Source: a virus
Lineage: Duplodnaviria > Heunggongvirae > Uroviricota > Caudoviricetes
DNA length: 7,590 bases
IMG/VR virus record: IMGVR_UViG_2740892230_000005
Strand: one strand, 5' to 3'
This document shows positions 1 to 3,000 of the stretch, in pieces. Position 1 is the first letter of the stretch. Each line of letters opens with the position of its first letter. A program made the position numbers.

Positions 1-3000
1 CGTGATCCTGCTGGACTTTATGCGCCGGGAATTAAACCTGTCTAACTCATCAGTGCTTGGAGCCTGTCAGAAGCTTCAGGAGGCTGTTGGCTTACCGAAT
101 CTGGCACCGCNNNNNNNNNNAAAAGCGAGTTGCAAATTAGCAACTCGGTAACGGAATTGAGCAACACCCTAAATTTGGGTATTACCTCGTTAAAGATACT
201 GTATTTATGAACAGTGTATCCTTGATAACTATTAAAAATCGCAGTAAGTTCATCTTGCATCAACGAAAAGGGAGTGCAGTCCCGAAATTTGTGGAGAAAC
301 CAATGAATCAGTTGCTTGTAATTGATGGCGTTTCTGTGCGCCAGTACTTTGAATCTAACTACTGTCTTAACGACCTTCAGAAAGCTGCTCTTCTTGCCGC
401 TGGTGAGAATCGCTCCTCCCGTTCGCTGGAAGTTCACGAGTTTATGCGTCGTCCTGAAACGAAGGCTCTTGTGGAATTACTGGAAGAAGAAACTACGGGA
501 GATTCCCGTAGTATTCCTGTCATCACCATTCAGGGGCGCAATGGTGGGACGTATGTCTGTAAAGAGCTGGTCTATGCATATGCAATGTGGATCAGCCCGG
601 CATTCAGCTTAAAAGTGATACGTACTTTTGATGCGCTTCATAATTCATCACCAGAAGAAACCACATCCGACAAAATTAAATCCGGGGTCATTCTGCTTGA
701 ATCAGCAGCAAAGACTCTAAATCTGTCAAACTCCTCGAAACTTGGTGCATACCAGAAATTATCAAAGGTAGCAGGTCTTCCTGAACTTATGCCGAGCTAT
801 GCCATTGATGCACCTGCTGATGCGCCAGATGGTTCAAGCCGCCCGACACTGTCACTGAGTGCACTGCTGAAACAGTATGGTATACGCCTGACGGCTAATC
901 AGGCATATCACCAGATGGNNNNNNNNNNCGTCATTCCATCTGAAGGTGATCCGTACTTTCGATATGGTAACCAGCGCACCGGAAAAATTATCCGGGCAGG
1001 CTGCTGACAAGATGCAGGCTGGAGTGATTCTGCTGGACTTTATGCGCAGGGAGTTAAACCTGTCTAACTCTTCAGTGCTTGGTGCCTGTCAGAAACTCCA
1101 GGAGGCTGTTGGCTTACCGAATCTGGCACCGCGCTATGCCATTGATGCTCCTGCTGACGCGCCTGATGGCTCAAGTCGCCCTACGCTGTCGCTGAGTGCA
1201 CTGCTGAAACAGTATGGTATCCGCCTGACGGCTAATCAGGCATATCACCAGATGGTGAAACTGGGGATCGTCGAGCAGCGCGAACGATACAGCCGTACCG
1301 CGATTAACAACATCAAAAAATTCTGGTCGCTGACNNNNNNNNNNTACGGCTAATCAGGCATATCACCAGATGGCGAAGCTGGGGATCGTTGAACAACGCG
1401 AACGATACAGCCGTACCTCGATTAACAACATCAAAAAATTCTGGTCGCTGACAGCGAAAGGCTGCATGTTCGGCAAGAACATCACCAGTCCCGCAAATCC
1501 GCGCGAGACGCAGCCGCATTTCTTCGAATCCCGATTCCCTGAGCTGTTAAAGCTGCTCGATACCGTTCATTGAGGTGACCGTGAGAGCACTACTGACCCC
1601 TGAAATTGCCCCGCGTATGGGGATCGTATTGTTCAGGCCAGGTTCAGAGCTGATGCCCCTGTTTATGCAGGGGCGTGTCCTGCTGGAGCCTGAGCCGGAA
1701 CGTTATTCATCTTTCGCCAGTGGTGCCGTTCCGGCGGCATCACAACCGCTGGCGGATGATCCTGCCGTTCGGGCTGTGTTCCGCAATGAGGCAGTGATCC
1801 GTCGTGCTGGTGGCGTGGAATGTCTTGAAAGCTGGTTACTTCGTGAAAAAGGCTGCCAGTGGCCTCATTCCGACTGGCACAGCGAGAACATGACCACAAT
1901 GCGGCACGCTCCGGGAGCAATTCGTCTGTGCTGGCACTGCGATAACCAGCTGCGTGACCAGTTCACGGAACGGCTGGAATCAATGGCAACGGNNNNNNNN
2001 NNACACGCGCCGGGCGCAATCCGTCTGTGCTGGCACTGTGATAACCAGCTGCGCGATCAGTTCACGGAACGGCTGGAATCAATGGCAACGGATAACTGTG
2101 CCCGCTGGGTGTTGTCTGTTGTGCGTCGGGATCTCGGTTTTGATGACAGTCACGTTGTGACAATGCCGGAACTGTGCTGGTGGCTGATTCGTAATGACCT
2201 GGCGGATGCCTTACCGGAAAGTGCAGCCCGTAAGGCACTGAGATTACCGAAGCCTGTTGTGCCGTCTGTCACCCGGGAAAGTGACCTTGTGCCTTCGGTT
2301 CCTGCCACCAGCATCATCCAGGATAAAGCGAAAAAGGTGCTGGCGCTGAAAGTGGATCCGGAGTCGCCGGAGTCTTTTATGTTACGCCCAAAACGTCGCC
2401 GCTGGGTTAATGAAAAGTACACGCGCTGGGTTAAGACGCAGCCGTGCGCATGTTGTGGAAAGCCAGCTGATGATCCCCACCACCTGATAGGCCACGGTCA
2501 GGGTGGAATGGGTACAAAAGCGCATGATCNNNNNNNNNNTTGCGCGTGTTGTGGTAAGCCAGCCGACGATCCACATCACCTGATTGGCCATGGTCAGGGT
2601 GGAATGGGTACAAAAGCGCATGACCTTTTTGTGTTGCCTTTGTGCAGAAAACACCATGACGAACTGCATGCGGATACCGTGGCATTTGAAGAGAAGTATG
2701 GCTCTCAGCTGGAGCTGATATTTCGTTTTATCGATCGCGCGCTGGCGATTGGTGTGCTGTCCTGATTTTGTGGAGAAAGTTGATGCGTGATATTCAGATG
2801 GTTCTTGAACGCTGGGGGGCATGGGCGGCAAGTGGTAACACCGGGGTGGACTATTCTCCGATCGCTGCCGGATTCAAAGGACTTTTACCATCTGCCACTA
2901 AACCACGTCCGGCCTGCTGCGATGATGACGGACTTATCATTGAAAACTGTCTTGCTCGTCTGAAGCAGAAAAAACCTGAGGAGTATTCGCTTCTCATTGC

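Follow-up and report, generated by a model that had tools for sequence, protein, structure and literature searches.

A LexA operator-quality box next to a predicted kilA-N promoter in the nin region of an SfIV/e14-like lambdoid prophage

The host repressor LexA is known to control phage genes directly in 186, N15, Gifsy, CTX and GIL01. In 186 and N15, which are P2-like or linear-plasmid prophages, the phage repressors are not sensitive to RecA, and an antirepressor is the only route to induction. When the repressor of a lambdoid phage is cleavable, RecA-stimulated cleavage of CI is normally taken to be the only way in for the SOS signal. In the Gifsy prophages, the LexA site is located downstream of the replication genes and outside the immunity region, with a palindrome before it (Lemire et al. 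2011, PMC3121763); antirepressor-driven induction has been linked to short, non-cleavable repressors, and the Gifsy antirepressors are small proteins (PMC3121763). The Bacillus thuringiensis phage GIL01 carries LexA boxes at its early and late promoters, and its truncated LexA homologue gp6 activates the LexA-repressed late promoter (Fornelos et al. 2018, PMC6182141) by way of a palindrome that is not a LexA box (PMC6182141). Here we analyse a LexA-type box upstream of a kilA-N gene in the viral record IMGVR_UViG_2740892230_000005, of which the whole stretch of 7,590 nucleotides (nt) is referred to as the window. The host element is an SfIV/e14-like lambdoid prophage, and the box lies in its nin region. 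We hold with moderate confidence that the box belongs to a LexA-repressed auxiliary promoter, which would allow SOS-inducible, CI-independent transcription of kilA-N and probably also of the downstream genes DUF968 and Q.

The features on which this reading is built are located as follows.
Window 197-216, no strand: LexA operator (SOS box) TACTGTATTTATGAACAGTG; its CTGT-N8-ACAG core at 199-214 is perfect.
Window 222-250, plus strand: putative sigma-70 promoter of kilA-N (-35 TTGATA at 222-227, spacer N17, -10 TAAGTT at 245-250), from a weighted scan and a footprint.
Window 293-918, plus strand: Shine-Dalgarno sequence GGAG at 293-296 and the first 205 codons of kilA-N from its ATG at 303, cut by the run of N at 919-928.

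Judged by its score, the box is a high-scoring LexA operator of bona fide quality. The motif CTGT-N8-ACAG occurs twice in the window, compared with 0.12 expected occurrences, and none of 200 shuffles reaches two. A search with the idealised 20-mer consensus TACTGTATATATATACAGTA, allowing up to three mismatches, found nothing and so missed the box at 197-216, because the differences sit in the weakly constrained spacer. Since the spacer differs, the mismatch search was replaced by a matrix and a heterology index (HI), both derived from 29 E. coli operators known from the literature; four of these sequences, standing for five named operators, were verified against the K-12 genome. With the 29-operator matrix the box scores 22 bits and its HI is 4.9 to 6.2, in the range of recA and sulA, and 0 of 300 Markov-random, composition-matched windows equal it (best random HI 6.45). 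To validate the training set, we also performed a hold-out test, in which the matrix was rebuilt without recA, lexA and uvrA/ssb and used to scan two 50-kb regions of K-12 MG1655 (100 kb). Exactly four matches of at least 12 bits were obtained, namely lexA1, lexA2, uvrA/ssb and recA (18.2 to 20.8 bits), and with the same matrix the box reaches 23.0 bits, above the recA, lexA and uvrA operators. The near-consensus LexA site reported at this place in a preliminary description of the window is thus confirmed, and the matrix and heterology-index scoring that had been proposed there puts it within the range of proven operators. No further site of at least 11 bits was found within 18.8 kb around the box in its complete-genome context (L001), immunity region included. 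A CI or Cro operator was ruled out as an explanation for the palindrome, which is identical across prophages with three different immunity regions.

The window itself consists of eight pieces with runs of 10 N between them. Adjacent pieces overlap by 74-127 bp at 90-96% identity, so that the window strings together paralogous prophage segments instead of representing one contiguous locus.
Window 111-120, 919-928, 1335-1344, 1993-2002, 2530-2539, 3583-3592 and 7320-7329: runs of N.
Open reading frames (ORFs) that span these runs, for example 207-1007 and 1575-2765, are chimeric. The box, the promoter and the first 205 kilA-N codons are all contained in the single piece 121-918, which matches the complete chromosome of E. 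coli 2013C-3264 at 100% identity and Shigella phage SfIV at 97%. The element is present in 186 of 5,426 complete E. coli genomes, including O104:H4 outbreak strains and O111 and O157 Shiga toxin-producing E. coli (STEC), and also in phage SfIV. Two close variants of the region between rusA and kilA-N exist in E. coli, the commoner of which has an 11-bp insertion and is found in SfIV as well as in 144 of the 186 E. coli genomes having the region; the box is identical in both, and the SfIV copy, which ends in ...CAGTA, scores 24 bits. Between the rusA stop at 151 (corresponding to L001 9031) and the kilA-N ATG at 303 there are 151 bp, which contain the box, and the same 151-bp gap is found in complete genomes and in SfIV. 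The RefSeq coding sequence WP_001072676.1 (271 aa, 'KilA-N domain-containing protein') begins at this ATG, 86 nt from the end of the box, in agreement with the distance of about 85 bp given in the preliminary description. The alternative ATG at 207 does lie inside the box, as noted there, but was rejected as the start codon: it lacks a Shine-Dalgarno sequence, and the 11-bp insertion of the commoner variant shifts it out of frame with kilA-N.

The candidate at 222-250 is the best promoter in the region by the weighted scan (score 9.5, 90th percentile of background), and it is predicted to be the probable promoter of kilA-N. When five diverged intergenic regions are aligned (those of E. coli, SfIV, Raoultella, Kluyvera and a viral contig; 61% identical overall), T223, G224, T245, A246, A247 and T250 are invariant; the TG of the -35 and TAAnnT in the -10, containing the TAnnnT core, are thereby kept throughout. 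Transcription would start near 256-258, placing the centre of the box at about -50 (about -60 to -41), 5 bp before the -35. The box hence adjoins a predicted promoter upstream of kilA-N, as an operator would. An identical box-to-promoter geometry is found in Raoultella. Erwinia possesses a strong promoter (TTGCCA or TTGATT, N17, TATATT; scores of 13.8 and 12.1, above the 99th percentile) with the -10 at the centre of the palindrome, and the layout in Serratia is akin to that of Erwinia. The position of the operator relative to the promoter thus seems to vary by lineage, while the pairing of palindrome and promoter appears to recur. One other candidate was seen in the window.
Window 157-185, plus strand: weaker alternative promoter TTGAGC-N17-TATTAC (score 8.0), relative to which the box would extend from about +5 to +25.
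This candidate has neither the conserved final T of the -10 nor support across lineages.

Because the two E. coli variants are too close to yield a footprint within the species, relatives of the protein were fetched, each species being represented by a single genome, with viral contigs as a further source. At 78 independent loci, seven boxes of at least 14 bits were detected within 200 nt upstream of the homologue, where the remaining sequence of these loci predicts 0.24 (p about 7e-9, approximately 30-fold).
E. coli, upstream of kilA-N homologue: box of 22.1 bits.
Edwardsiella, upstream of homologue: box of 19.1 bits.
Erwinia, upstream of homologue: box of 16.1 bits.
Raoultella, upstream of homologue: box of 15.4 bits.
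Serratia, upstream of homologue: box of 15.3 bits.
Viral contig, upstream of homologue: box of 14.5 bits.
Rosenbergiella, upstream of homologue: box of 14.1 bits.
There are thus six box-bearing lineages besides E. coli, five of which are assigned to other genera.

Four complete contexts, those of E. coli 2013C-3264, O104:H4 C227-11, O157:H7 FRIK944 and phage SfIV, have a common gene order: CI-like repressor, Cro-like protein, replication genes, N6-adenine methylase (which the SfIV record does not annotate), a 108-aa 'LexA family' protein, rusA, box, kilA-N, sometimes a small ORF, DUF968/HNH-like gene and Q. The core order rusA-kilA-N-DUF968-Q is found across Enterobacterales.
Window 1575-3163, plus strand: DUF968/HNH-like gene (1575-2765) and antiterminator gene Q (2768-3163), assigned by Pfam, on separate stitched pieces in the window.
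In complete genomes the gaps between kilA-N, DUF968 and Q measure 7-17 nt, and the only strong intrinsic terminator follows Q (L001 11995-12015), so that the three genes look like one transcription unit. Neither PADLOC nor NCBIfam provided an informative family for the KilA-N protein, the small hypothetical protein or DUF968. Further downstream in the window, two related small ORFs (3286-3531 and 5490-5717) follow two Q-type genes and have the sequence K-QQDMTETA...CQLILTQL in common; the small-ORF regions 3233-3411 and 5368-5546 are about 85% identical at the DNA level, and Pfam gave no match for the ORF at 5490-5717, the only one of the pair scanned.

The proposed auxiliary promoter would work in the following way. 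In an undamaged lysogen, the early-right promoter (PR) would be shut by CI, and LexA bound at 197-216 would silence TTGATA-N17-TAAGTT, most likely by blocking the upstream contacts of RNA polymerase alpha and sigma-4. Upon DNA damage, RecA would become active, LexA would cleave itself, and the promoter would fire independently of PR. The resulting transcript would comprise kilA-N and probably also the tightly packed genes for DUF968 and for Q, the late-gene antiterminator. In lytic growth, PR would supply transcription of the same genes, and the box would represent a second, SOS-gated input to the distal early operon. The quality and non-randomness of the site, its intergenic position, the conserved core of the promoter, the recurrence in other genera and the gene order were all computed. 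LexA would be expected to occupy the site in vivo and to repress from a position centred at -50, with transcription starting at the predicted place and presumably reading through to Q. If this is true, the LexA-gated promoter before kilA-N-DUF968-Q would be a second entry point of the SOS signal, and if its transcripts reach Q, DNA damage could prime the late genes (those for lysis, and for the toxin in related Shiga toxin (Stx) phages) without full derepression of PR.

Several observations weigh against this auxiliary promoter. The candidate at 222-250 is modest, with 8 of 12 consensus matches and a score at the 90th percentile of background, and a strict consensus promoter scan (threshold 9 of 12) found none near the box. 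A box centred at -50 is not the commonest position for repression, and an activator could use such a site. Weak terminator-like hairpins are present within the DUF968 gene, and Rho-dependent termination is also possible, so a transcript from 222-250 would only presumably reach Q. In addition, it would be costly for a cell to express Q in the absence of replication or excision; this argues for an output that is low or otherwise checked. Most homologues have no box; many of these box-less homologues start 19-40 nt after rusA, among them a 70%-identical E. coli/Shigella group (19 nt), Proteus and Morganella. At the homologous place in Rahnella (8.4 bits), Buttiauxella (8.9 bits) and Pantoea, degenerate palindromes of 6-10 bits are found, and the palindrome of locus L125 scores -2.3 bits. 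Because most homologues lack the box and several palindromes are degenerate, LexA control is accessory; it appears to be a recurrent yet optional, lineage-specific add-on to kilA-N. Finally, LexA-controlled phage genes are well known as a principle, but we found no description of this site in the searchable literature: neither the sequence of the box at 197-216 nor that of the second box of the window (see below) was found in any searchable paper, nor was there a description of LexA control over nin-region or Q genes in these phages.

A different role for the box had been put forward in the preliminary description, in which kilA-N was taken for a LexA-controlled antirepressor gene of the Gifsy or 186/N15 type and induction was suggested to proceed via LexA instead of, or besides, repressor autocleavage. 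On the pattern of Gifsy, 186 Tum and N15 AntC, the KilA-N protein would then inactivate the repressor of its own or of a co-resident prophage. We regard this model as unlikely. It is in line with the placement of the box outside the immunity region and after the replication genes, which is the Gifsy layout; moreover, cross-talk in trans is conceivable in STEC genomes, which are rich in lambdoid prophages, and the stitched window indeed mixes paralogous copies. The protein itself, in contrast, offers little that would identify it as an antirepressor. Pfam detects KilA-N (PF04383) at residues 10-114 with 57.6-58.4 bits (cut-off 23.8) and, even at E<=1, nothing but KilA-N, that is, no ANT/KilAC, AntA/B, Bro-N or Rha domain. 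The PHROGs family is labelled 'transcriptional regulator', NCBIfam has no model for the protein, and the name antirepressor appears on none of the 120 homologue clusters listed. In an AlphaFold model (predicted local distance difference test score, pLDDT, 76), the KilA-N domain (1-115) is followed by a helical region, then by a disordered linker and finally by a C-terminal domain of alpha/beta type (182-266). Searches by fold with this model recovered mainly the KilA-N/Mbp1 DNA-binding fold, with yeast Mbp1 and viral KilA-N proteins matching the N-terminal domain; two weak viral matches labelled antirepressor had template modelling scores (TM-scores) of about 0.2, and the full-length model had no significant match in the PDB (best E 0.33). 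The viral matches cover mainly the KilA-N domain, leaving the C-terminal domain 182-266 with no assigned match, and it is this domain without an assigned function that gives the antirepressor model some room. The kilA-N product is thus a predicted DNA-binding protein with a conserved C-terminal domain; with 271 aa and a DNA-binding domain it is unlike the small Gifsy antirepressors (PMC3121763), and to call it an antirepressor from the name KilA-N alone is not justified.

The repressors speak against the same model. Those of L001, SfIV, L163 (the prophage of E. coli O104:H4 C227-11) and L164 are 217-230 aa long, the L001 repressor matches Pfam Peptidase_S24, and all four possess the complete S24 autocleavage motifs (Ala-Gly site, GDSM, and KR or KK), so that a lambda-type induction route is available in each of these contexts; the repressors of Gifsy, 186 and N15, in contrast, are short and cannot be cleaved. 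In addition, the gene is kept beside DUF968 and Q in many box-less phages, with a 19-nt gap, which fits an ordinary early or lytic function, and the existence of 70%-identical and other homologues without box implies that the core role of the protein is not tied to LexA. Neither the antirepressor identity of the gene nor induction through a LexA-controlled antirepressor could therefore be upheld, and we retain the LexA-repressed auxiliary promoter as the preferred reading of the box.

The box upstream of kilA-N is not the only one of its kind in the window.
Window 5876-5895, no strand: a further box of LexA quality, TACTGTAAAAATAAACAGTG, which covers codons 3 to 10 of the DNA methylase gene in the late region (5868-6920).
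L163:13436-13455, L003:6156, L014:5951 and L033:5460: other copies of the second box.
The second box scores 22 bits (HI 5.2-5.4) and, with the hold-out matrix, 22.8 bits. Its arms ACTGTAAA and CAGT are invariant in the five copies, synonymous positions included, while nearby codons vary; three of the other four methylase copies are only 61-75% identical to the window methylase at the protein level. These divergent copies were used instead of the methylase relatives on viral contigs, which are 99-100% identical and thus uninformative. The O104:H4 copy, TACTGTAAAAATATCCAGTT, differs in sequence and reaches 24 bits. Both boxes are present in the O104:H4 prophage, together with a third LexA-type box, TACTGTTTTTACATACAGTA (25 bits, L163:3827-3846), which is located inside the coding sequence of the CI-like (XRE family) repressor. 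As to the surroundings of the second box, the approximately 100 nt before the methylase start (about 5760-5867) are well conserved among the Kluyvera, Rosenbergiella, Providencia and E. coli copies and may be part of a late leader, and a hairpin, CTGCTTT-AGCGCA-AAAGCAG, without a match in Rfam is found upstream of the methylase at 5816-5835.

The 108-aa gene mentioned above, which is located outside the window two genes upstream of the box (L001:8313-8639), encodes only a LexA DNA-binding domain.
L002:5313-5639, L163:8282-8608 and L164:8313-8639: copies of the 108-aa gene.
The protein matches PF01726 with 69 bits and, in the lexA equivalog model, positions 1-91; it shares 43% identity with residues 1-86 of E. 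coli LexA. The recognition helix is nearly unchanged (SVNAAVEHLRAL in the phage protein, SPNAAEEHLKAL in LexA), and the wing reads ARGI instead of SRGI. Homologues are found in several genera. A strict coupling between the box and the phage lexA-like gene was ruled out, as each is found without the other, and host LexA is for this reason the simplest binder of the box.

Taken together, the recurring boxes, the conserved methylase box and the phage LexA-domain protein suggest a wider, undescribed LexA-centred layer in these prophages. In its furthest form, host LexA would gate the late switch at two points, a promoter feeding Q and the start of the methylase gene, despite the presence of a cleavable CI, and the phage LexA-domain protein would act on the same boxes, and maybe on host SOS boxes, as an activator or to close them again, following a GIL01-style logic in a lambda-style phage. 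We consider this scheme distinctly improbable; if it were true, Q and potentially Shiga-toxin late transcription would be under direct LexA control in STEC relatives.

The phage protein also enters into an alternative explanation for the box at 197-216, according to which this site is mainly, or additionally, the target of the uncleavable 108-aa protein, which would be made from PR after induction and would either close the kilA-N promoter again or activate it in the manner of GIL01 gp6. The gene is present in every E. coli context examined, always in the order methylase, lexA-like gene, rusA, box, kilA-N, the 43% identity to LexA 1-86 with its near-intact recognition helix and wing is compatible with recognition of the same site, the box sits next to the -35, where an activator could plausibly act, and GIL01 offers a precedent for a truncated LexA homologue that acts as an activator (PMC6182141). 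However, Shigella locus L010 encodes a 97%-identical protein and has no box before kilA-N, and the boxes of Serratia, Rosenbergiella and Erwinia occur without such a gene within 3 kb. The palindrome of GIL01 gp6 differs from a LexA box, strong binding of a dyad is uncertain for a protein that has no LexA dimerisation domain, and host LexA accounts for the site without extra assumptions. This makes a leading role of the phage protein at the box very unlikely. That the box is a chance or decaying palindrome without regulatory role, with kilA-N expressed only by read-through from PR, would agree with its absence from most homologues, with the degenerate palindromes of Rahnella, Buttiauxella and L125 and with a predicted promoter that is not strong, but is rendered extremely improbable by a score of 22-23 bits that exceeds four validated K-12 operators and has no false positives at 12 bits or more in 100 kb of K-12, by the failure of all 300 random windows to match it, by the roughly 30-fold enrichment of boxes upstream of homologues in other genera and by its intact state in both variants across 186 E. 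coli genomes.

The putative LexA-repressed promoter is flanked by two further structured elements.
Window 126-151, plus strand: 3' end of rusA, with the palindrome CGAGTTGC-AAATTA-GCAACTCG at 126-147 (L001:9006-9027) and the stop codon TAA at 149-151.
Window 270-283, plus strand: leader hairpin GGGA-GUGCAG-UCCC, between promoter and Shine-Dalgarno sequence, present in minimum-free-energy folds.
A Gifsy-like role of the first palindrome as a plus-strand terminator before the box was ruled out, as a T-run exists only on the minus strand. In the uninterrupted genome it is terminator-like on the minus strand only (L001 9027-9006), the tail being cut by a run of N in the window, and it looks like a terminator for antisense transcription leaving the kilA-N region. 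The leader hairpin has an apical loop (G/U)UGCAG, which is replaced by UGUACGG in Proteus and AUGCGG in Providencia, and its stems covary; in the SfIV variant there is an outer stem at 264-291. Of 41 distinct homologous upstream regions, 17 have the loop N-TGCAG closed by a stem of 4 bp or more, and these stems have 12 different sequences; of the background TGCAG occurrences, only 3.9% are in such a stem (homologous positions are in L003-L041 and L124-L153). Rfam had no match for the hairpin or for anything else in the window. The hairpin is kept in many lineages, including those without the promoter cassette and those in which the gap between rusA and kilA-N is 19 nt. LexA control thus seems to have been added to kilA-N in the form of a small promoter-plus-operator cassette between rusA and this conserved leader hairpin.

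Compared with the known systems, the box resembles the chromosomal recA, lexA and uvrA/ssb operators in its CTGT-N8-ACAG dyad, with an equal or higher score, and in its distance to the start codon (87-106 nt, versus 84-103 nt for the uvrA box); in contrast to these operators, it resides in a mobile element and lies upstream of and next to the -35, not over the core promoter. With 186 Tum and N15 AntC it shares the principle of coupling one phage gene to the SOS response through a phage promoter with a single host-LexA operator, although neither protein has detectable domain similarity to the KilA-N protein. As in GIL01, the phage programme has host LexA boxes in more than one place (here ahead of the Q operon and at the first late-region gene of the O104:H4 prophage), and the phage encodes a protein made up of a LexA DNA-binding domain only, which is known here from its sequence. 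GIL01, however, is a tectivirus without a repressor of its own, in which LexA and gp7 keep lysogeny, whereas CI-like and Cro-like genes are present in all contexts analysed here; with respect to activation of the GIL01 type at the -35, only the geometry of a box adjoining the -35 is compatible. Closest are the dinI-antirepressor operons of the Salmonella prophages Gifsy-1, -2 and -3, which are likewise lambdoid and also have a box with its own promoter about 1 kb or more past the replication genes. Of the Gifsy/186/N15-type arrangement suggested in the preliminary description, the layout therefore stands (box and promoter outside the immunity region, after the replication genes and preceded by a palindrome), whereas the short non-cleavable repressor and the antirepressor product do not: Gifsy phages combine short, non-cleavable repressors with small antirepressors, while here the repressors have S24 motifs and the product is a 271-aa KilA-N protein without antirepressor domain. 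In both cases distal early-region genes are SOS-inducible independently of PR, as established for Gifsy and predicted here, and, unlike in Gifsy, the operon of the SfIV/e14-like prophages runs on into DUF968 and the antiterminator gene Q.

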